Shown here in pieces: positions 10,559 through 43,737 of a DNA stretch of 64,000 bases. The stretch lies in the NCBI GenBank assembly GCA_014378465.1, contig JACMNQ010000021.1, forward strand, positions 4,898-68,897. Reading direction: 5' to 3'. Made by a program: the position numbers and the translations under genes. The DNA comes from Oligoflexia bacterium (GTDB lineage: Bacteria; Bdellovibrionota; UBA1018). The notes under the pieces are model-generated. The model searched no databases. It was given only the letters and a program-made list of their open reading frames with translations, and was not told where the DNA came from. Every line of letters begins with the position of its first letter. Position 1 is the first letter of the stretch.

Positions 10559-12514
10559 GTGAGCAGTACCCTTCGAAAAAACGCTGCAAACATCTTCAGA
10601 CCAGGATCCAGGCTCGCCTTGATCTCCCTGAGTCTTTTCGCATTTGCAGCGCTTCAGTTCGGTTGCACGAACGGAACGATGGGCAAACTCACTTCAAAAA
10701 CCACAGAAGGACTGGCCGCAAGCACCCCGGGTGGCGCCAGCTCCGGCGACGGCTCCCTGCTTTCACTCACGCGAGTGATTCGTTCGAGCGCAACTCCGGA
10801 TACCAGTTTTGATCTCGTCGGCGATGGAAGCGGCTCGATCGGGCAACTCTGCGTGAGCACGACAGGAGGTGCGGGAAACACTGGCGCCAGCACCTGCGTC
10901 TGCGCCTATGACTACATCCGTGCAGATGGTTCGCATGAAAGTTTTGAAGCCGACACGATCTACCGCGAGAACAATCTCATCCGCTGCAGCACCGCTTCGA
11001 TTCCGGCCGGTCTTGGCTACGTCAAAGTGGCCGTGAAACTCGTCAACTCGGGTGACACTTCGAACCAGATCACTTTCAATTTTCTCAGCGGCGGCTCCGT
11101 CCTGAACCTGGGCGATGCTTCCAGCTTTTCGGATGTGAAACGGTACCAGTGCAAAGACGCCGTCTACATTCAGAACATGTTCACGAGTGATTCGATGTAC
11201 GACCCGATGCAGTCGGAAGATCCGGCCATCAGCTACCCTCTGAATTTCTACACGCTGAACATTGCCAAATCGATCGTCAAATTCGCCGGCCTCGACGCGA
11301 ACAAACCCGTGAACGGTTCGGGTTGGATCTGCCCCACCACTCCGAACGATCCAAGCGCCGGCATGAACCTGAACGTGTTCAGTGTGATGCCTCTCGGAGG
11401 CTCAGACTACTCCATTTATCCCGTCGCTCCCGGTGGCGCCTATGACCGCAGCGGTTTTCTTCTCGCCAAAAAGGCCTCCGGCGTCTTCAACGTGCCGGTC
11501 AACGCTTTCATCGCGCCCAACATCAACACGACTTCAGGGGGAGGCTCCGAGCCGCCGCTCGGCTTCGGTGCGGCACCGATCCCGGTCGGGGACGGAACCA
11601 CTGAAAGGTGTCCTGACTCCTCCGTTTCAATTCCCTCAGGCTATCACTGGGTGAAGGTCTGGCTCTTCCGCGCTTCGCTCGAAGATCGCAAGGCGAAGAA
11701 AAGCGCCGCGTTCACGAGTCTGGGTCCGCTCTTCTGCAACCCGGGCTATTGGCCAGGTACGGTGGCACCAGCCACTCCGGAATATGTTTTCAAGGATTGT
11801 CATAATTCAGCGACCCTCAGCGCGACCAATTCACTTTCGGCACGAGTTCTCCAGAATCATGCCTGTGTGAATCCGAGCCCAGTCGGCGCGATTGGCAGCA
11901 AGAGCGCAGGAACAACCGTTGCGGGTGGAACCACCGACTGCAGTGACCCGGTAGCCGGTTGTGTGCAGAGATCCGGTTACAGCCAATATGCGCTGGGGAC
12001 TGATATCTGGAAGTACGGCTATACGAATACCCAGGGCCTCGCAGCCCTCCCAGACGCCCCCGGACGCGACCGTTTCAGCGATTGTGCCAATAGCCCGGAT
12101 CCCATCGGGCTCTGCTCGAGCGGCACGACGGGATCCAACGGAACTTCCGATTTTTCCGTCCCGAAAGACGGCAACCCGACGCTGGTCAGCATCGATGGCG
12201 GCGTTTCCCGTTACGATTACATGTACGTCGTGTCTCCTCCGAGCATCAACGCGTTGGACTTCAAGAACGCGACTTCCAACAGCCTCCCCTACACTCCACT
12301 TCGCTATCATTCGTCAAAAGACTGTCAGGGAGACCCCGATCATCCGCGCTTTGCAGGAGACTGTTCTCCAAGTAAACTCATTCGGTATGGAGTCAAGTTT
12401 CACGACATCGCGACCAATGGTGACGAAGCAGTCGGCACGGTCACTTCTCCCGGCAACAACGGTCGCCTTCCGGTATTCCCGGTCTGCGCGCTCCAGAAGG
12501 GTACGGGGCCCTGA
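10559..12514 (+). CDS. Hypothetical Cys-rich lipoprotein (cluster gene 3)
   Basis: 651-aa ORF with lipobox LQFG-C. Gly/Ser/Thr/Cys-rich; no family recognised. Confidence 0.75.
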   Translation: MSSTLRKNAANIFRPGSRLALISLSLFAFAALQFGCTNGTMGKLTSKTTEGLAASTPGGASSGDGSLLSLTRVIRSSATPDTSFDLVGDGSGSIGQLCVSTTGGAGNTGASTCVCAYDYIRADGSHESFEADTIYRENNLIRCSTASIPAGLGYVKVAVKLVNSGDTSNQITFNFLSGGSVLNLGDASSFSDVKRYQCKDAVYIQNMFTSDSMYDPMQSEDPAISYPLNFYTLNIAKSIVKFAGLDANKPVNGSGWICPTTPNDPSAGMNLNVFSVMPLGGSDYSIYPVAPGGAYDRSGFLLAKKASGVFNVPVNAFIAPNINTTSGGGSEPPLGFGAAPIPVGDGTTERCPDSSVSIPSGYHWVKVWLFRASLEDRKAKKSAAFTSLGPLFCNPGYWPGTVAPATPEYVFKDCHNSATLSATNSLSARVLQNHACVNPSPVGAIGSKSAGTTVAGGTTDCSDPVAGCVQRSGYSQYALGTDIWKYGYTNTQGLAALPDAPGRDRFSDCANSPDPIGLCSSGTTGSNGTSDFSVPKDGNPTLVSIDGGVSRYDYMYVVSPPSINALDFKNATSNSLPYTPLRYHSSKDCQGDPDHPRFAGDCSPSKLIRYGVKFHDIATNGDEAVGTVTSPGNNGRLPVFPVCALQKGTGP

Positions 12515-32875: not shown

Positions 32876-33006
32876 ATTCAATTCCTGCGGTCAACTCCCC
32901 ACTCCCCATCGCAATTCTGAAAAATATCGCGTAAATAGTTGATGACACAGGCGGAAGTGCCCACTAGAGTTTGAAGTTAAAGCTTCACCCGAACTTCGAG
33001 AAAATT

Positions 33007-35949
33007 ATGCAATTACCGAACATCGCTCAGAAAATCTTTGGAACCCAGAACGAACGCGAATTGAAATCGATCTTCCCGATCGTCGCGCGCATCAATCAGC
33101 TCGAAGCCACCATCAAGCCCTTGAGTGACGAACAGCTCAAGGCCAAGACCGCCGAATTCAAAGGGCGCCTGGCCAAGGGTGAAACGCTCAACGATATTCT
33201 GGATGAAGCCTTCGCAGTCGTTCGGGAAGCGGCCTGGAGAACCCTCGGTCAGCGTCACTACGATGTTCAGTTGATCGGCGGGATCACGCTTCACCGCGGA
33301 CGCATCGCTGAAATGAGAACTGGCGAAGGAAAAACCCTGGTCGCGACTCTTGCCTGTTATCTCAACGCTCTCAGCGGCAAGGGCATTCACGTCATCACCG
33401 TCAATGATTACCTCGCGCGCCGAGATGCTCAGCAGATGGGGCAGGTCTATGGATTTCTCGGCCTCACCGTCGGAGTGATCGTGCACGGGCTTTCGGACGC
33501 GCAGAGAAAACAGAATTACGGCTGCGACATCACTTACGGCACGAACAACGAGTTCGGTTTTGATTACCTCCGCGACAACATGAAATTTCGCCTCGACGAC
33601 TACGTCCAGCGCGAGCTGAATTTCGCCATTGTTGACGAAGTGGATTCCATCCTGATTGACGAAGCGAGAACTCCGCTCATCATCAGTGGTCCGACCGATG
33701 ATTCGACCGACATGTATTACAAGATTGACCAGCAGCTTGCGTCCGGAAACGCGCTGACCCCGGAAATCGACTACACCATTGACGAAAAATCCAAGTCCGC
33801 CGCGCTCACTGAAGCGGGCGTCGACAAGATGGAGAAGCGTCTTGGGATCGCCAATCTCTATGATCCGGCCAACATCGAAGTGCTCCATCACGTCAACCAG
33901 GGGCTGAGAGCGCACGTGCTCTTCAAGCTCGACGTCGATTACGTGGTGAAAGACGGCGAAGTCATGATCGTCGATGAATTCACGGGACGCCTCATGCCGG
34001 GCCGCCGCTGGTCCGATGGACTCCATCAGGCCATCGAAGCCAAAGAAGGCGTGAACATCGAAAATGAGAATCAGACTCTCGCGACGATCACTTTTCAGAA
34101 TTACTTCCGCATGTACAACAAACTCAGCGGGATGACCGGCACGGCCGATACGGAAGCCACCGAGTTCAAACAGATCTACAAGCTTGATGTCACGATCGTG
34201 CCCACGAACCGCAACATGATCCGAAAGGACAATGCGGACGTCATCTACAAATCCCAGCTCGCGAAATTCACGGCGGCAGCAGCTGAGATTCAGCGCCTGC
34301 ATGAAAAGGGTCAGCCCGTGCTGGTGGGGACCGTCTCCGTCGAACGCTCCGAATTCATCGCGGCGATTCTCAAGAAGAACGGCATCAAGCACAACGTCCT
34401 GAACGCGAAACAGCATCAGCGTGAAGCCGAGATCGTCGCCCAGGCCGGACGAAAGGGAGCAGTCACGATTTCGACCAACATGGCCGGTCGTGGAACTGAC
34501 ATTCTTCTCGGTGGAAATGCCGAGTTTCTTGCCAAGAACGAAGTCGGCCCGCTGAAAGCGGACGCGACGGACGAAGAAAAAGCGGAACACGAAAAAGCGG
34601 TTCACGAAGCGATGGACCGCTGGGCAAAGCTCTGCGCGAAGGAAAAGGAAGAAGTCCTCCAGGCTGGCGGGCTTTTCATTCTCGGAACCGAACGCCACGA
34701 ATCTCGCCGAATCGACAATCAGCTTCGCGGTCGCGCGGGACGCCAGGGCGATCCGGGGGAAAGCCGTTTCTACCTTTCCTTCGAAGATGATCTGCTCCGC
34801 ATCTTTGGTCAGAATGAACTCATGAAGCGCACGGTCGCCGCCATGGAAGAAGAAGTGCCGATCGAACATCGCTGGACCACCAAGGCGATTGAAAATGCCC
34901 AGCGCAAGGTCGAAGGACACAACTACGATATCCGCAAGCACCTGCTTGAATACGATGACGTCATGAACCAGCAGCGCCAGGTCGTTTACAACTGGCGCAA
35001 GGCCGTTCTTGCGAGCGAGAATCTCAAGGAAATGGCGTACTCGATGATCGGTGACCTCGCCGCGAACATCGGACAGGACTTTTTCCCGAACGGCAAACTC
35101 AAGCGTGAAAATGGACATGCGTCCCTGGACGTCAATGAACTGAACGTCGCCATTTCGACGACTCTTCAGATTGAATCAAAGGTCTCCGAAAAGGACCTTC
35201 ACCCGTTCAATCACATCGGCCTCAGGGACCTGATCGTCACGACGGCCAAAGAAGCCTACGAAGCCAAGGAAAAGAACTTCGGCGACACGGTCATGCGCCA
35301 GCTGGAGAAGATGATTCTCCTGACGACGATCGATCACCTGTGGAAAGATCACCTGCTCGCGATGGATCACCTCCGCGAAGGAATCGGCCTTCAGGGTTAT
35401 GGGCAGAAGGATCCCCTCATCGCTTACAAGAAAGAGGGCTTCGGCTACTTTCAGCTGATGATGGACCAGATCAACGTGGACGTGATTCGCAAACTTTTCG
35501 CGGTTCAGCTTTCACCTGAAGAAACTCCTGATTTTCAGCGTGATTTTGACGCGGAACTCGAAGAGAATGAGCCCTCGCTCGCCGACATTCAGTACAACAT
35601 CAATGAAAATGGCGAACTGGTTCCCGTCAGTGGCAGCGCGCAGCCTGAGCTCGCGCATGCCGGCGCCGGAAGTCCGTCGGGTCATGCCGGGCATACACAC
35701 GCGGCCGGGGCGCACGCCGCGGGCGGACACCTGGAGGCCGCTGAATCTGCAGCCGCCATTCCCGCGCGGAGTTTCGATGTCGCTGACATGGCCAAAGCGC
35801 CTCGTCAGATGATGATGAGCCGCGGGCCACTCACTGCCGGTGCAGGCGGTGGCATGTCCATGGGCGCGACTGACCCCGACAAAGTCGGCCGCAATGGTCC
35901 CTGCCCTTGTGGCAGTGGCAAGAAATACAAGAAGTGCCATGGGGCCTAA
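33007..35949 (+). CDS. secA: Preprotein translocase subunit SecA
   Basis: Motifs [46 protein letters not shown] and the C-terminal SEC-C motif [17 protein letters not shown] 33007 (ORF-track TTG 32971). Confidence 0.97.
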
Positions 35950-37318
35950 GTCGGGCGATGGCCCAAGCGACGGACGCTTGGGCGATTCCGGTTCCGATTC
36001 GACGAAAAGCAAGATCACGGACCTGACCGGAATCAGCAAGCTCGTCAAAAACACGAAAGACTCCGCCCCTTCCCCTGACTCATTGGAACTTCAGTTTGAA
36101 GAATCCGCACCGGCACTGCAGGACTCCGAATTTCTCATGGACTTTGAACCCATGGGATCTGAACCTCCCAGCGAATCCGAACTCGCCGAAGAAAAAGCGG
36201 CGCATTTCGCGGCTTCCCAGGGCAATGGGCCGGGCCAGGGCCAGAGCCAGAGCAATGATGAAATCATCCTCGAAGAGAGCGCTCCTTTCGGAAATGACGA
36301 TCTCGCGGAATTTGATCAGCCGCTCGGAGTATCCGAAGGATCACACTCAGCATCATCCGAAGGATCGGGCGAGGCACTGGGCGAAACGCTCCCCGAAGAA
36401 GCCTCCACAATACCTTCAGAGGACCTCGCAGTCGACTTGCCGGATTTCTCCGCGAGTCTGGATGAACTGGTACTTGAGGCGGAAGCTTCTGGGCATCTGA
36501 ACCCTGCTCTCGAAGTTCCGGTTTTGGAACTCGGCGGCGGAACCCTCTCGACGATCACACCTCACGCGGTGAGCACGCCACAGGGCATGGACTCCGGCGC
36601 ACCTCCGCAGGGACTCAGTCAGGTGAAGGAATACTCCGACACGCTCTCGCAAGCCATCCCGCCCGTGCCCGCCAGCGTACCTTTCACTCTCAAGATCGAG
36701 GGCACTCTCAAGCCACACGAACAAGAGCGTCTTCTCGATATCCTTTCGCGTGAAAACATGGGCATTCGCGAGCTTGACCTGGAGCCGCAGCTTCAGGCCG
36801 GACGAATTCTGATTCCAAGAGTGAGTGAGTTTGCCGCCATTCTTCTCGTGCAGGCGCTGCGAAGCGCGCATGTGAAAATTCAGATGCTGCCCTCCGACGG
36901 AATCGTCGCCGGACATTCAGGCACTCACGCAAGCGGCATGAATGGTCCAGGCGCTTATGACACTTCCGGCATCACTCAAAGTGAAATCCAGACCAGTGAA
37001 GCTTCAGACACTGCCCCACATCCGGCCGAGAAAATCCCGGTCACACCCAGCACGACTTTCGCACAGTACAAACGCATTCAGGTGATCGACACCGTGACGG
37101 CGAGCGCGACTCTCAAGTCAAACGCCATTGACGTCGAAAGTTCCGCCGTTTTTCAGCAGATTCTGGAATCCTTGCAGCGCGAACTCAAGTACAAGGCCTT
37201 CCGAAAAGGCGCGACTGCCGTGCTCGGTTTCTCAGTCACCGTCACTCCCCAGGATCTCCCGAGTCACTACCGCCTTCTCGTCATGGGAACCGCGGTCAGG
37301 GAATTCAGCCAGAGCTAG
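35939..37318 (+). CDS. Acidic low-complexity protein with C-terminal YbjQ/heavy-metal-binding-like domain
   Basis: ATG overlaps the end of secA. The N-terminal half is E/D/S/P-rich. C-terminus IPVT..IDTV...[16 protein letters not shown]...LVMGTAV resembles YbjQ (UPF0145). Confidence 0.6.
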
Positions 37319-37459: not shown

Positions 37460-37867
37460 TCAAATTGCTGTTCCGGTCAGCCTTCCAATTCCGGCCGTCA
37501 CGAGCGTCGCGAGCGCACCCCAGAAAAAAACCCGCATCGCAAAGCTCACCGCGGAAGCCAGCGCCGCCTGAATCGGCCGAGCCCGGGTAACGTGGTTGAT
37601 GCCCAGCTCATCCCGTGCGTGCGATCCCAGTGCGTCATGAGCCATCAACTGTTCGGCGACCTGAATCGCCAGTTCAACGGTCAGACCCCATTTGACATAA
37701 ATACTGGCCAATTCGCGCTTTTCGGCCCTGAAGTTCTGTTTGAGTTCCTGCTTTTCAAGCGCGAGATCCGCTGCTTCGGTATCCGCCTGAGAACTGACGG
37801 AAACATACTCACCCGCCGCCATTGAGAGGGACCCCGCGACAAGACTGGCAATGCCCGCGGCAGATTA
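37460..37867 (-). pseudogene. VIT1/CCC1 iron/manganese transporter remnant
   Basis: AGIASLVAGSLSMAAGEYVSVSSQ and HARDELGI..RPIQAALAS are VIT motifs. An in-frame TAA at 37867-37865 removes the N-terminus, and the TM segment normally between ASAVSFA and RVFFWGALA is missing. Confidence 0.75.
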
Positions 37868-38807: not shown

Positions 38808-39518
38808 TCAGCCGTGGCCAGCCCAACGCGTGAAAACGCTGAGTCCACTGAGCCCGGTGATACCGGTGATGCCCGTCCAGAGAATCTTGAGACCGAAAGT
38901 CCCGATGATCACTCCGAGGCTGCGAATGCAGTAGACGTAGCCCTGGCCGGAAAGAAACGGCTTGGCTTTGACCGTGGCCGTGATGATGCACATCTTGGCG
39001 AGAAAAACGGCGACGTAAAAACTCAGAATGAAAGTCAGCACCTGGGCGGGACCTTGCGTGAAGGCCCCGACGAGAAAAGGCGAGCCCACTCCCATCCAGA
39101 ACAGATAAGGGTACGGACTCAGAGCGCTGGCCATGATTCCTTTTTTGAGCGAATGGGGTTCTGATTCCTGCACTTCGAGTTCCTTCGCCTTGTAAGTCAG
39201 GTTCTCATAGGCCATCGAAAAAATGAAAAGTGCGCCGGCCAGAGATAGAACGGAGAGCACGAGATCCAGGTGCGCGAGCCTCGACAGAGCGAAGAGCGCG
39301 AGCAGAATCACGGGAGCGTCCGTGATCAGGGGTGAGCATGAAATTTTCACGCCTTCACGCGCCCCATGTTTCAAAGTCTGTGAAATGACCAGGGTGCACA
39401 GGGGCCCGGGCGTAAAGCCGCTTGCGCCTCCCAAAGCCAGCCCCGTCAGCATCCACGACGTCCCTGTCGCCATTGCCATCGCTACTCTCTCTTTTTTGAT
39501 TTCTGAATTCGACCTCAA
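38808..39518 (-). CDS. LysE-family amino acid exporter
   Basis: GFTPGP..LVISQTLKHG..EG..D and SLKKG...LSPYPYLFW. The true start may be an internal ATG near 39475. Confidence 0.85.
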   Translation of the reverse strand: MRSNSEIKKERVAMAMATGTSWMLTGLALGGASGFTPGPLCTLVISQTLKHGAREGVKISCSPLITDAPVILLALFALSRLAHLDLVLSVLSLAGALFIFSMAYENLTYKAKELEVQESEPHSLKKGIMASALSPYPYLFWMGVGSPFLVGAFTQGPAQVLTFILSFYVAVFLAKMCIITATVKAKPFLSGQGYVYCIRSLGVIIGTFGLKILWTGITGITGLSGLSVFTRWAGHG

Positions 39519-39683
39519 TTTGAAACTGAGCCGTCCACTCGAAAAACTGTCTCAATCCTGAGTCAGCATTTGCCCACCCGCCTCGGATGGCGTCTTCAGA
39601 GTAATGAATTTTGCAACGCTCGTGAAGCACTTTCTGAAAAGAGGGAGACTTGGCTTGGTCGCTCGCTTGCAAGCTCATTGCTC

Positions 39684-40862
39684 ATGACCTTTTTGATGTC
39701 GCAGAAATCCCCGGTGCATCCTTCTCTCTCAACCCCACCTGCGCCGAAAACGGAATTCAGTGCAACCGAGAGCGCGCTGCTTGAGCTCGGGAAACTCCTT
39801 CAGCACAAGCGTTATCAATTCGTGACCCTCACGCCGGCCTCGCATGCCCGCGTTCTCGCGCGAGACCGCTTCAACCCAACTGATCCGCTTCGTGCAGTCT
39901 TCGGCTGGAATCAACCTTTCAGAAAAAATGAGCTGGATCCTTCAGTTTTTGAACTTCTGCAAAAGGCTGAAGTCCTCGAAACGCTCTCATGGGACCGGTT
40001 CAAGAGCCGCGTTCGCTTCTCGACACTCGGAGATTGCCTCTTTCTGCATTCGGCATTTCCAACGGAGGCTGCCGACAGTGTGTTTTTTGGACCCGACACT
40101 TACCGCTTCACTCGTTTCCTCAAGGAGCAACTGACGAGCCGGCAATCGGAAGGTTCCACTTTCTGGCCTCAGTCCCTGCAACCGTGTCGTCCGAAGCTTC
40201 GCGCGCTGGATCTTGGCTGTGGCGCAGGAGCAGGCGGACTCTTCCTGATCCATTCTTCGCCCTCTTCATCATCTTTTTCTTCCTCACCTTCTTCATCCTC
40301 CTCGTCTTCTTCCTCGTCTCCGGCTCCTCTTGAATTTTCGGAGATGGTGCTCTCCGACGTGAATCCGAAAGCCCTTTCCTACTCGCGAGTCAATTCAGCG
40401 ATCAATGCAGTATCCGACACCCGGCTCCACGCCGCGCCCCACAGTGCGGGAGCGTCCCTCACCTTTCTGGAGAGCGACCTCTATTCGAAGGTGAAAGGAG
40501 AGTTTGACCTGATCCTGGCCAATCCTCCCTTTCTGATCGATGGCGAGAAAAGAAGCTATCGTCACGGGGGCGAAGAAGCGGGTGCGGAACTTTCACTCCA
40601 GATCGTGAGAGGGGCTCTGTCTCGCCTGACTCCGGGAGGAAAGCTCCTGCTTTACACGGCGTCGGCCATTCAAGACGGCAAGGATCCATTCATCAACTCG
40701 GTGTACAAAATCCTGCTGGAGCCCTTTGACAAGTTCGAACTCAGCTATGAAGAAATCGATCCGGACATCTTTGGCGAAGAACTCGGACGTCAGGCGTACT
40801 CGGAAGTGGACCGCCTGGCTGCAGTCGGACTCGTGGTGACAAGACCCAAAGTCTCCGTGTGA
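39684..40862 (+). CDS. Class I SAM-dependent methyltransferase (PrmC/MTS-like)
   Basis: Motifs VFFGPDTYRF, ALDLGCGAG, LSDVN, DLILANPPF and YEEIDPDIFGEEL. ORF-track start is 39570; the true start is uncertain. Confidence 0.85.
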   Translation: MTFLMSQKSPVHPSLSTPPAPKTEFSATESALLELGKLLQHKRYQFVTLTPASHARVLARDRFNPTDPLRAVFGWNQPFRKNELDPSVFELLQKAEVLETLSWDRFKSRVRFSTLGDCLFLHSAFPTEAADSVFFGPDTYRFTRFLKEQLTSRQSEGSTFWPQSLQPCRPKLRALDLGCGAGAGGLFLIHSSPSSSSFSSSPSSSSSSSSSSPAPLEFSEMVLSDVNPKALSYSRVNSAINAVSDTRLHAAPHSAGASLTFLESDLYSKVKGEFDLILANPPFLIDGEKRSYRHGGEEAGAELSLQIVRGALSRLTPGGKLLLYTASAIQDGKDPFINSVYKILLEPFDKFELSYEEIDPDIFGEELGRQAYSEVDRLAAVGLVVTRPKVSV

Positions 40863-41902
40863 CCCGCGAGCCCGCTTTCGCGCGTGGCGTGACTTCTCTC
40901 ACCCGCGGCGTGACTGCGGAGGGCCTCATGATCATGAACTTCGGCCACAAGACAGGCGGCACTTCCGCCGGCGCGCTGAAACTCCGAGAGAGGCGCGTAG
41001 CGGGGGGTGTAGCCCTGCAGCTTCAGAGAGCGCATCAGGCCCGGCAGAAAACTGCCCAGAATCACGGTTTTTCCGACCTGCACCAGGTTGCAGCCAAAAC
41101 TCAGCGCCTCTCGCTCGGACACTTCGATCACTTTTGAAATCCAGGGCGAGCGCACGAGGAGCTCCCAGGATTTCGGCGCAAAAGCTCGTTTACAGGCGAT
41201 TGCAGTTCCGTCCTTGAGGACACTCAGCGCGGTATCGAGATGATACAGAAAAGGATCCACGAGCTTTAGCGGAAGGACGCTGACTCCGATTCGAACTTCG
41301 AGTGCGTGAGCGGACTCGAGAGTAGACCTGAAACCATGACCCATGAAAATGCCGTGGCCAGCGCAGACGACCAGGTCTCCGCCTTCGAGCTTGAACTGAG
41401 GTGGCAGCTCGACCACGGAAAAACCGCGTGAAAGGAGCGCTTTCTTCCGCCCAGCCTGCTCCGCCCTTCTCACCCCATGGAGAGGGTTGGCCAGGACGGC
41501 AAGCTGACTTGCACCTGGCTTCACGGATGAGGCAGGGCCTGCACTTGAAAGCAGAAGCGCATTGTCCTTGGTGAAAACTGAATCATAAGCGCTGCAGACG
41601 AACGGAAGCTCCACCACCTCTGCGCCGGCATCCCGCAAAAGCTGCTTGAAGTTCAGGTGCTGCGTGAACGCGATCTCGAGATCAGAGGACCCGGGCACCA
41701 TATGAGGGTTGATCGTCCACGCGATCTGAAAGTGACACTGCTCGGAGTGCGCGTGAGGCAGGGAGCAGGAAACATCGCTCAAAATGAAAGTGCTCTTTTT
41801 GGCTTCGGCAGATGAGTTTACCTGGGAGGACAAGGCCGATGACCAAGCCGGTGGTGAAGTCATGGAGGATGAAGCCATGGTGGATGAAGTCGCCAGTTGC
41901 AT
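40790..41902 (-). CDS. Amidinotransferase / dimethylarginine dimethylaminohydrolase superfamily enzyme
   Basis: Motifs INPHM, DSVFTKD, LEGGD, YHLDT and the C-terminal nucleophile GGSAAC. Confidence 0.85.
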   Translation of the reverse strand: MQLATSSTMASSSMTSPPAWSSALSSQVNSSAEAKKSTFILSDVSCSLPHAHSEQCHFQIAWTINPHMVPGSSDLEIAFTQHLNFKQLLRDAGAEVVELPFVCSAYDSVFTKDNALLLSSAGPASSVKPGASQLAVLANPLHGVRRAEQAGRKKALLSRGFSVVELPPQFKLEGGDLVVCAGHGIFMGHGFRSTLESAHALEVRIGVSVLPLKLVDPFLYHLDTALSVLKDGTAIACKRAFAPKSWELLVRSPWISKVIEVSEREALSFGCNLVQVGKTVILGSFLPGLMRSLKLQGYTPRYAPLSEFQRAGGSAACLVAEVHDHEALRSHAAGERSHATRESGLAGHTETLGLVTTSPTAARRSTSEYA

Positions 41903-42044
41903 ATTAGGTCATCACTAAGCACAAGGAAGGCCAAAAAGGGCCCTGTCTCAGAATCGTCTGAGAAAAAAACGCACAAATCCCCGTGCGCACGCTCGTGCTC
42001 CAATTCAAAGAGGGAGGCATACCTCCTGCATTCGTGAGTGCGAT

Positions 42045-43004
42045 ATGATTGACTCGAGCAGACCCGAACACCTCTCCAGGACTTTGCAACTTGCGTGGGC
42101 CCTGCAAAACAGGAAGCGCCTGAGTCCCAATCTCAACGCGCTTGAGTCCGCCCCCTCTTATCTCGACAGCCTGCTTGACCTGAAATGGAAAGCCGACCTC
42201 ACCGCTGAAGCGGAATTTGCCCGCATCGAAGGAGAATGGATCGAGTCTGAGCGCCGCGAAATCGCGCCCTGGGCCAATCAAGCACCTCGCACGCCGGACG
42301 ATTTCATCCAGTGGTTTGAAGACCTCAAGCAGACGGGTCCGGGCCAGCAGGATCCCCTTTTCCCGTGGCTTGCAAAAGAGGCCAGCTTTGAGGAAATGCG
42401 TTGGTTTTTGAAACAGGAAGTGGGCGGCGAGGCCGGCTTTGACGACTTGGTCGCTTTGACTCAGGTCAAGCTGCCCAATCAGGCCAAACTCGAACTTGCC
42501 CGAAACTACTGGGATGAGATGGGCCGCGGGAGTGAGCGCGGCATGCATGGACCGATGCTCCATCACCTCGCGGTGGAGCTCGAGCTTCACCCCGTGCCTG
42601 AAGCCGAGATCGTGACTGAGAGTCTGGCCCTGGGCAATCTCATGGTCGGCATGGCCTTTCACAAACGCTATACTTATCAGTCCATCGGAGCGCTCGGGGT
42701 GATCGAGCTCACGGCGCCGGGACGAGCCTCGTGTGTTTACGAGGGGTTAAAGCGTCTGGACGTGAGTTCCACGGGCCGCCAGTACTACCTGCTCCACTCA
42801 ACTCTGGATGTGAAACATTCAGAAGCCTGGAACCGCGAAGTGCTCCGCCCACTGATCTCGGCCAGCCCGAAAGTTGCGCCGCTCATTGCCGAAGGCGCAC
42901 TTCTTCGGCTGAAAGCCGGCAGTTTCTGCTTCCGGCGTTACCGGCGGGAGCTCGATCTACTGAATCTCAACTCCAAAATCGCAAGTCTGCGCTTGACGGC
43001 TTAA
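42045..43004 (+). CDS. Iron-containing redox enzyme (heme-oxygenase-like diiron oxidase, HDO)
   Basis: QEVGGEAGFDDLVA, YWDEMGRG..H, LGVIEL and H-x3-D-x2-H (HSTLDVKH), matching the diiron ligand pattern. Confidence 0.85.
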   Translation: MIDSSRPEHLSRTLQLAWALQNRKRLSPNLNALESAPSYLDSLLDLKWKADLTAEAEFARIEGEWIESERREIAPWANQAPRTPDDFIQWFEDLKQTGPGQQDPLFPWLAKEASFEEMRWFLKQEVGGEAGFDDLVALTQVKLPNQAKLELARNYWDEMGRGSERGMHGPMLHHLAVELELHPVPEAEIVTESLALGNLMVGMAFHKRYTYQSIGALGVIELTAPGRASCVYEGLKRLDVSSTGRQYYLLHSTLDVKHSEAWNREVLRPLISASPKVAPLIAEGALLRLKAGSFCFRRYRRELDLLNLNSKIASLRLTA

Positions 43005-43182: not shown

Positions 43183-43737
43183 TTGGGCCTGATTGAAAAG
43201 CTGGAGATTGAACCTCTCATGAATTCTTTTCTGACCTCACTGACCCCTGTCCAACTCAGACCTCGTTTGCCCATTCAAATTCCCAGGTTTTCGGAACTGT
43301 TTGGCAAACGATCGTTTCATCTGCCCCGTTTCGCGATGCCCAAACCCGTGGACCGGGTGAAAGCCATGATCGACACTTTTGAAGATGAAGCCAACGGGAT
43401 CTCGCTGGACATCCGAAACCTGGAGCAGCGCCTCTTCGACCGCGGGGTCTTCATCCCTTACGATTACGCGATCACCAAGCGCTACGAATCCAATGACGAC
43501 TACTCTCCTCTCGTGAAAGCACTCGAAATTTCCTGGGACAATTACCGTGGCAAGGGCTTTCGCCTGCTCCTGAGAGAAGAAAAGTACACGAATCTCAAGG
43601 GCGCGCCTCGCATTCGCCTCGTGACTCCGCTGGTGGATTGCACTTCAGTCAAAAAAGTTCAGGCCTATTACCACCTGGATAAATTTCTGACGGGCCTTGC
43701 GAAGAACACGCACTCGAGTTCGTCTTTGGTTTCCTGA
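43183..43737 (+). CDS. Hypothetical protein
   Basis: 184-aa ORF with protein-like composition. An alternative ATG lies at 43219. No family recognised. Confidence 0.6.
   Translation: MGLIEKLEIEPLMNSFLTSLTPVQLRPRLPIQIPRFSELFGKRSFHLPRFAMPKPVDRVKAMIDTFEDEANGISLDIRNLEQRLFDRGVFIPYDYAITKRYESNDDYSPLVKALEISWDNYRGKGFRLLLREEKYTNLKGAPRIRLVTPLVDCTSVKKVQAYYHLDKFLTGLAKNTHSSSSLVS

Follow-up and report, generated by a model that had tools for sequence, protein, structure and literature searches.

In the 64,000-nucleotide stretch of DNA from an Oligoflexia bacterium (Bdellovibrionota) that we analysed, hereafter the window, three neighbouring genes at positions 39570-43004 encode a methyltransferase, a cysteine hydrolase and a putative diiron oxygenase of the heme-oxygenase-like type (HDO), and these three genes are genetically coupled across phyla, with the catalytic and ligand residues of their products kept. 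Our preferred reading, which we hold with about even confidence, is that they are one copy of a widespread uncharacterised module whose substrate is a basic amino acid in free form, with L-arginine the likeliest candidate. An initial annotation of the region had grouped the three enzymes with an adjacent LysE-family exporter as a compact orphan cluster that makes and secretes an arginine-derived N-methyl/N-oxy metabolite. All four open reading frames (ORFs) were found, on alternating strands, and a product of this kind, most likely derived from arginine, stays the best reading; the window locus proves to be no orphan, since the module is very large, with homologues numbering more than 8000 for the HDO and more than 2300 for the methyltransferase, and the place of the exporter in it has to be given up, as discussed below. 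Literature searches for the pairing of HDO and methyltransferase, for PF14518, and for the label "iron-containing redox enzyme" in connection with stress found no paper that describes the function of the module, in agreement with the earlier statement that no product has been assigned.

Co-occurrence of the three enzymes across phyla

The module consists in the window of an S-adenosylmethionine-dependent methyltransferase of the NPPY/F type (39570-40862, plus strand; PF05175 (MTS), 7e-11), a cysteine hydrolase with the fold of guanidino-group-modifying enzymes (GME) that resembles ArgZ and DDAH (40790-41902, minus strand; PF19420 (DDAH), 1.3e-8) and an HDO of the HrmI-like clade, a putative N-oxygenase (42045-43004, plus strand; PF14518, 3.6e-38). 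To describe its distribution we used 80 HDO orthologue loci from isolate genomes and metagenome-assembled genomes of at least five phyla, spanning Myxococcota, Alpha-, Beta- and Gammaproteobacteria, Bdellovibrionota, Acidobacteriota and Verrucomicrobiota, and counted the genes that lie up to about 6 kb from the HDO gene (up to 7 kb for the hydrolase). A methyltransferase orthologue lies near the HDO in 53 of the 80 loci, a PurD-like ATP-grasp ligase (PF01071) in 22, the hydrolase in 17 and a large catalase in 8. The remaining 27 loci have no nearby methyltransferase gene; among the 18 of their genomes that were checked, nine carry the gene elsewhere and nine do not carry it, and in two of the nine genomes with a distant methyltransferase gene an ATP-grasp gene adjoins it. 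The core of the module is HDO and methyltransferase, with the hydrolase and the PurD-like ligase as optional additions; no PurD-like ATP-grasp partner was found in the genome of the window.

The association also holds when the sampling is centred on the partners. The hydrolase subfamily is small, comprising 230 proteins at E<=1e-20, and in each of five members sampled separately a PF14518 gene directly adjoins the hydrolase gene (three of these loci also have the methyltransferase, one an ATP-grasp gene and one a catalase), so that, together with the 17 loci of the HDO sample, hydrolase and HDO are adjacent in 22/22 cases. Sampling centred on the methyltransferase gave an adjoining PF14518 gene in three of four members. 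In Pseudomonas fluorescens (CP109659.1; L123:4613-9536) the methyltransferase orthologue, at 42% identity, follows a 458-aa PF14518 protein without BLAST similarity to the window HDO, that is, a different HDO subfamily, and the partnership of methyltransferase and HDO is therefore not tied to one HDO lineage. The gene that comes next after the methyltransferase at this locus encodes LigD, the ligase of non-homologous end joining.

Gene structure adds to the evidence from gene neighbourhood. In Legionella lytica, hydrolase and methyltransferase form a single uninterrupted ORF of 619 aa, with the hydrolase domain at aa 52-288 and the methyltransferase domain at aa 435-554; in two Bdellovibrionota loci (L020, L117) the two genes are co-directional and overlap; and the divergent orientation of hydrolase and HDO recurs in most loci. 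Co-occurrence, fusion and gene overlaps indicate that the three enzymes are a real functional unit. The initial annotation had linked methyltransferase, guanidino-fold enzyme and HDO in function, and had proposed to look for their joint occurrence in other genomes: the link is upheld by the recurrence of these three in several phyla and by the fusion of two of them in one genome. The HDO clade runs to thousands of proteins, the best matches at 55-68% identity, in several phyla and with a defined set of partners. Conservation of this kind speaks for a metabolite that derives from a basic amino acid and is common but unrecognised, and less for a rare antibiotic. The fusion and the strict link between hydrolase and HDO narrow the candidate substrates to a short list.

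The putative diiron oxygenase

The window HDO is a protein of 319 aa with a single PF14518 domain (131.6 bits vs a cut-off of 28.9) and no cupin domain. Its six ligand-position residues, three His and three carboxylates (E158, H168, E221, H251, D255 and H258), do not vary among 22 orthologues and coincide in alignment with the motifs of HrmI, which is also the best PDB match of the HDO profile (E 2e-44). An AlphaFold2 model, all-helical and with a pLDDT of 87, agrees with the seven-helix heme-oxygenase-like fold and retrieves HrmI at the top of a Foldseek search (TM 0.70-0.80, root-mean-square deviation 2.0 Å over 253 columns), followed by RohS and SznF and then by FlcD and CADD; the three nearest structural relatives, HrmI, RohS and SznF, are all N-oxygenases. 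On sequence and predicted structure we assign the window protein to the HrmI-like clade of HDOs, as a putative diiron N-oxygenase. The initial annotation had cited SznF, among other characterised HDOs, as a precedent. Membership of the SznF family is not supported, because the window HDO is HrmI-like and lacks the cupin domain and SznF is remote from it (E~1e-3 across the HDO core, TM about 0.5), and the analogy with streptozotocin biosynthesis is one of pathway logic, not of family membership. A further PF14518 protein of this genome, more distant than the first, is encoded by a 251-aa open frame (G000:C59:71970-72443, locus L122; 49.5 bits).

The methyltransferase

An automatic gene call had retained only the final 172 aa of the methyltransferase, probably because of a lineage-specific poly-Ser insertion encoded by a TCN microsatellite (40254-40328, plus strand; aa 229-253) in the loop after motif I. 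The 25 inserted residues are absent in 53/53 orthologues, are encoded by a tandem repeat of period 15 in 3.8 copies (Tandem Repeats Finder) and have low pLDDT. The full-length ORF is real, because 53 orthologues align along its whole length (about 350 aa, N-terminal domain included); translation probably starts at M39 or M43, that is, at 39684 or 39696. Invariant motifs are FGW(S/N)xPF, HSAFPT, VFFGPDTYRF, D214-G-x-G-x-G, D263-x-N265, N318-P-P-F, RxYRxGGG and DPDxFGEEL. The GxGxG motif I is that of class I enzymes, and motif IV reads NPPF in the window (aa 318-321), the family consensus being NPPY. FGWSxPF, HSAFPT and VFFGPDTYRF belong to an N-terminal domain specific to this family, which has a conserved C-terminal block as well. 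With an AlphaFold2 model (pLDDT 87), the top Foldseek match is GenN, an aminoglycoside amine N-methyltransferase, followed by AerE (a peptide asparagine N-methyltransferase), PrmC and RsmC; a carbamoyl N-methyltransferase was also matched, and the TM values for PrmC, which ranks below GenN, are 0.43-0.57. On these sequence and model comparisons we class the protein as an N-methyltransferase; homology by itself does not discriminate between small-molecule and macromolecular targets.

If the target were a macromolecule, the HemK/RsmC-like methyltransferase would work with its partners on protein or RNA, perhaps at Arg, Gln or Lys residues of proteins under stress. The nearest solved relatives in sequence do include rRNA and protein methyltransferases (RsmC, 4e-16; PrmC/HemK, 1e-15), AerE is a strong structural match, and many copies in the databases have been annotated automatically as release-factor methylases. 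We nevertheless consider this reading very unlikely, in view of the curated HemK, PrmC and RsmC models, all of which score the window protein far below their cut-offs (e.g. 37.7 bits vs 199.1 for TIGR03534, HemK/PrmC), of the family-specific N-terminal domain, and of the accessory and patchy occurrence of the gene. Moreover, the methyltransferase is fused or coupled to a hydrolase that keeps the residues by which ADI, DDAH and ArgZ bind free alpha-amino and alpha-carboxylate groups, and the PurD-like ligase and the HDO, as further partners of the methyltransferase, are of types that act on small molecules. It is the fusion to an amino-acid hydrolase that leads us to favour a small molecule as the target of methylation.

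The ArgZ-like hydrolase

Among solved structures, the profile of the hydrolase subfamily matches ArgZ/Sll1336 best and over the full length (2.4e-46), ahead of DDAH (4e-16) and of arginine deiminase (ADI; 6e-7). In NCBIfam the window protein matches a model for Mtb-type DDAH at 7.5e-34 and one for arginine dihydrolase at 1.2e-32, without coming near the cut-off of either: it scores 117 bits vs a cut-off of 300 with the best DDAH model, and 113.2 bits vs 450 and 114.6 bits vs 1025 with the arginine dihydrolase models NF052232 and NF052231, respectively. Invariant residues of the subfamily are D107, F110, K112, D113, R145, E148, E173, R192, H221, D223 and C317. They include the triad C317 (AGGSAACL), H221 (YHLDT) and E173 (EGGD), in which C317 corresponds in alignment to the cysteine of ArgZ changed to Ala in the 6lrh structure (PDB), and the motif around the catalytic histidine is H-L-D, as in ADI and ArgZ, not the H-x-K of DDAH. 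The roles given here to the substrate-binding residues follow the ADI/DDAH literature and a study that also treats the position after the catalytic His (PMC11659421). By correspondence of sequence motifs with ADI and DDAH, the residues kept would be an alpha-amine contact, two Arg that bind the carboxylate, two Asp that bind the guanidino group, and the triad. As residues that bind an amino acid are retained, a free arginine-type amino acid is favoured as the substrate of the hydrolase.

The FTKD motif to which the initial annotation had drawn attention is present at aa 110-113, but it is not a local oddity: F-x-K-D (K112, D113) is invariant throughout the HDO-linked hydrolases, ArgZ having F-T-A-N at this place, and the motif thus marks the HDO-linked subfamily as a whole. 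Its additional positively charged Lys in the guanidino pocket and the strict linkage to HDO lead us to favour an oxygenated guanidino substrate. Apart from these positions, the window copy has a C-x3-H-x5-C sequence at aa 46-56 (41737-41767), of which the two Cys and the His are nearly invariant in the subfamily (L004-L076); ArgZ has no such N-terminal Cys and His, which may form a metal site or a disulfide.

The close relationship to ArgZ also allows a different route, in which the hydrolase, as a true ArgZ-type dihydrolase, would make ornithine from arginine, the HDO would oxidise the terminal amine of ornithine or lysine, and the methyltransferase would methylate this amine or the hydroxylamine, giving an N-hydroxy/N-methyl or nitro amino acid. 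HrmI and ArgZ are by far the nearest characterised relatives of HDO and hydrolase, by the profile and structure scores given above, and GenN, the best structural match of the methyltransferase, methylates a primary amine. Yet the replacement of the ArgZ Ala-Asn by Lys-Asp means that the Asp typical of single-step deiminases and of DDAHs is kept, the arginine dihydrolase model falls far short of its 450-bit cut-off, and ornithine is universal, so that an enzyme that merely supplies it would need no strict link to HDO such as that observed. Ornithine carbamoyltransferase, which scores above its cut-off in this genome and in 8/11 hydrolase-bearing genomes, shows in addition that ornithine and citrulline metabolism is in place there. 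Taken together, we regard the ornithine/lysine route as rather unlikely. The distribution of ornithine carbamoyltransferase also led us to reject a role of the hydrolase in supplying citrulline where that enzyme is missing.

Proposed function of the module

With arginine as the most likely substrate, the HrmI-like diiron enzyme would, by analogy with its characterised relatives, N-oxygenate a side-chain nitrogen with O2; the cysteine hydrolase would form a covalent intermediate at Cys317 and so cleave the guanidino group, which would probably be oxygenated by then, and the invariant Lys112 beside the guanidino-binding Asp113 would suit an oxygenated substituent; the NPPY/F methyltransferase would methylate a nitrogen of the amine, ureido or guanidino type, in either the substrate or the product.

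Several points weigh against this reading of the module. We infer the roles of all three enzymes, as well as the substrate, the order of the steps and the product. HrmI, the nearest characterised HDO, is only 28-35% identical, and the nitrogen that it oxidises is N6 of Lys, a primary amine and no guanidine; the mapping of substrate residues in the hydrolase is a correspondence of motifs, not a solved complex; and RsmC and PrmC/HemK are among the nearest solved relatives of the methyltransferase. The module genes lie on alternating strands in this genome, and some genomes have the HDO but lack the methyltransferase, among them a complete Sphingomonas genome with two HDO copies and zero methyltransferase genes. 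A relative of the same genus likewise carries the HDO without methyltransferase and hydrolase, and the partners are therefore not obligatory.

HDO and hydrolase might also turn arginine nitrogen into reactive or oxidised forms independently of nitric oxide synthase, an idea that we think quite unlikely. The HDO would then N-hydroxylate or N-oxygenate the guanidino group, and the hydrolase, with its additional Lys in the active site, would free hydroxylamine, N-methylhydroxylamine or nitrite; alternatively, the outcome would be an N-hydroxyureido (hydroxyurea-like) amino acid, capped by the methyltransferase. The product of such a route could act together with the catalase that is a frequent neighbour in stress signalling or protection.

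Once solved, the module would give a function to a large set of genes now labelled "iron-containing redox enzyme", "release factor methylase" and "amidinotransferase", and it could uncover new chemistry of arginine N-oxygenation. If the links to catalase and stress described below are true, it could also offer a mechanism of stress protection, possibly related to that of Acinetobacter DtpC.

Arginine- and stress-related context

In Cystobacter the module is followed by genes for AstA (arginine N-succinyltransferase) and an ATP-grasp_4 ligase (L010:4707-7148). A KatE-type catalase (PF00199 with Catalase_C) lies within 10 kb of the HDO at L034, L041, L044, L049, L050, L061, L063, L065, L069 and L120, and these loci often also carry a 293-aa gene without known function, a zinc-type alcohol dehydrogenase and a short-chain dehydrogenase. 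Six alphaproteobacterial loci have an EcfG-type GGAAC-N-CGTT motif 5' of the HDO, where about one would be expected. In these other genomes, the catalase neighbours and the promoter motifs of the general-stress type speak for a metabolite that stays within the cell and is linked to stress, and not for a secreted natural product; we conclude that the product of the module is probably of this kind.

The same evidence can be read in a simpler way, with the HDO itself giving direct protection by binding iron or by consuming O2 or peroxide, and its neighbours only loosely associated. Such roles have been discussed for DtpC, an HDO of A. baumannii that protects against desiccation-induced oxidative stress; its gene shares a transcript with katE, and desiccation tolerance depends on the metal-ligand residues of the protein (PMC13232832). 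The recurrence of catalase beside the HDO family (8/80 loci, and L120) and the persistence of the HDO alone in some genomes would fit this explanation. It leaves without account, however, the strict linkage of a dedicated hydrolase subfamily, the fusion, and the adjacency of the methyltransferase in 53/80 loci, and DtpC, which we compared by description only, has close relatives confined to Acinetobacter, Pseudomonas and Stutzerimonas according to a BLAST search by its authors, who mention no methyltransferase or hydrolase partner (PMC13232832). We therefore give direct protection by the HDO a low probability.

The LysE neighbour

The exporter gene (38808-39518, minus strand; likely start 39473) encodes a LysE-family protein (PF01810, 1.2e-21; 77.5 bits vs a cut-off of 25.6) and is divergent from the methyltransferase gene, about 200 bp away. 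LysE-family proteins export basic amino acids, and the four-gene cluster of the initial annotation, in which an arginine-derived N-methyl/N-oxy product would be secreted by the adjacent LysE, draws on this property and on the divergent arrangement. It gains further from the fact that LysE, like the methyltransferase and hydrolase, is missing in nearly all of 40 relatives (absent from 39, with a 34%-identical copy in one) and lies in the same variable region. The comparison with other loci speaks against it: searches with tblastn and phmmer at E<=1 found a LysE-family ORF within +/-6 kb of the HDO in 0/80 loci, nine Pfam-annotated loci centred on hydrolase or methyltransferase contain none, and no transporter family of any kind recurs beside HDO loci, the recurring neighbours being intracellular enzymes and catalase. 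LysE is thus ruled out as a member of the module, and we find the cluster with secretion by LysE highly doubtful. The exporter gene is a neighbour seen only in this genome, where LysE may export the product while standing outside the system. A LysE-exported secreted metabolite is not supported, and neither is chemistry of the SznF type.

Arrangement of the locus and genomic setting

As the initial annotation had noted, the methyltransferase and hydrolase genes converge and overlap by 73 nt at their 3' ends (40790-40862, from the ORF coordinates). It had added that the genes are not one operon, which agrees with the alternating strands in the window, but the overlap itself is not unique: a convergent overlap of 58 nt between the same two genes is found in Cystobacter (L010) and in a metagenomic relative (L116), and since Archangiaceae loci have the same overlap, the convergent arrangement is a recurrent one and not unique to this genome. 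Hydrolase and HDO diverge from an intergenic region (41903-42044) that presumably holds their promoters, in an arrangement common to most loci. Alignment of five loci of the Bdellovibrionota clade revealed no common motif in this region, a scan for sigma-70 promoters gave no strong site there, and sigma-70 and terminator scans stayed at background level. A shared operator between hydrolase and HDO was considered and rejected, the five-locus alignment conserving nothing there. A GGAGG-CATA-CCTCC sequence at 42013-42026, 18 nt 5' of the HDO start, could form a small hairpin, and the one Shine-Dalgarno-like sequence present lies within it. On the 3' side of the HDO lies an ORF of 184 aa (43183-43737, plus strand) that is probably outside the module; Pfam and NCBIfam scans returned zero matches for it, and a homologue was present in 0/80 HDO loci.

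In a phylogenetic tree of HDOs the window protein groups with Bdellovibrionota HDOs, including the copy from the same genus, and with the Legionella lytica protein (support 100/93). A recent import from Myxococcota is not supported by this grouping. Among 40 relatives, the HDO is found only in the same-genus genome, at 59% identity and with other neighbours, and orthologues of the methyltransferase and hydrolase are found in 0/40. The gene order M23 peptidase, SecA and a 455-aa hypothetical protein (32971-37318) is conserved in six relatives (L110-L115), and synteny with them stops near 37.3 kb, after SecA and the hypothetical gene. The next 9 kb at that position are absent in the six relatives, and the window genes of 37.4-50 kb were not found downstream there. 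Because synteny ends at this point, the block at about 37.4-46 kb is a variable region; the borders of the island are vague, and the module is patchy in the order to which the host belongs. At the edge of the variable region, an ORF of the VIT1 family (37460-37822, minus strand; 120 aa) covers positions 48-146 of a 214-position profile and looks truncated or decayed. At the Legionella lytica locus (L074:5485-7266, 11811-12410) an asparagine-synthase-like gene and a resolvase flank the module, which hints at mobility.

Comparison with known systems

HrmI and BelK are HDOs that oxygenate N6 of L-lysine in the pathways to hormaomycin and belactosin (PDB 9n1a, 9n1x and 9nh9), and HrmI acts on the free amino acid. 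The window HDO has the same fold and the same motifs for three His and three carboxylates (NYWDEMGxGxxxxxH, GxxGxxE and HxxxDxxH). Its clade is separate from HrmI and BelK, is far larger, is spread over several phyla and has invariant blocks of its own (GPGQxDPLFPWLA and QEVxGEAGFDDL). The partners differ as well, being the NPPY methyltransferase, the ArgZ-like hydrolase and the PurD-like ligase for the window clade, and the Fe/2-oxoglutarate cyclopropanase HrmJ or BelL for HrmI and BelK; no 2-oxoglutarate oxygenase or non-ribosomal peptide synthetase was found in the window neighbourhood, among the recurrent neighbours or in the nine Pfam-annotated loci.

In the streptozotocin pathway, SznE is an arginine N-methyltransferase and SznF an HDO that N-oxygenates N-methyl-arginine. 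The module would resemble this pair in joining an N-methyltransferase to an HDO N-oxygenase on an arginine-type substrate, and ATP-grasp ligases occur in related loci. SznF carries a C-terminal cupin domain that the window HDO does not have, and N-nitrosation should not be read into the module. With ArgZ/AgrE, the cyanobacterial arginine dihydrolase whose substrate is free L-Arg (PDB 6juy and 6lrf), the hydrolase shares homology over its full length, the motifs RxxE, GYGFRS, YHLDT and AGG(S/A)AxCL, and the Cys/His/Glu triad; it differs in F-x-K-D, in the two extra N-terminal Cys, in the lack of an ornithine cyclodeaminase domain and in its strict link to HDO.

The reaction catalysed has been established for no more than about a dozen HDOs (PMC13108848). 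The pair of DtpC and KatE resembles the HDO family studied here, as far as a comparison by description goes, in that an HDO of uncharacterised chemistry is linked to a large catalase. A chemical precedent comes from two enzymes of nitroimidazole metabolism, RohS, an HDO that N-oxygenates 2-aminoimidazole on the way to azomycin, and NnhA, a GME-fold nitrohydrolase that frees nitrite from 2-nitroimidazole (PMC13133933, PMC11659421). These come from different organisms and from different pathways (synthesis and resistance), RohS is a remote relative of the window HDO (E~6e-3, Foldseek 4e-6), and NnhA is without the amino-acid-binding residues kept in the window hydrolase. As a pair, RohS and NnhA nonetheless show that a nitrogen of the amidine or guanidine type can be oxidised by an HDO and that a cysteine hydrolase sharing its fold with that of the module can afterwards remove the oxidised nitrogen.

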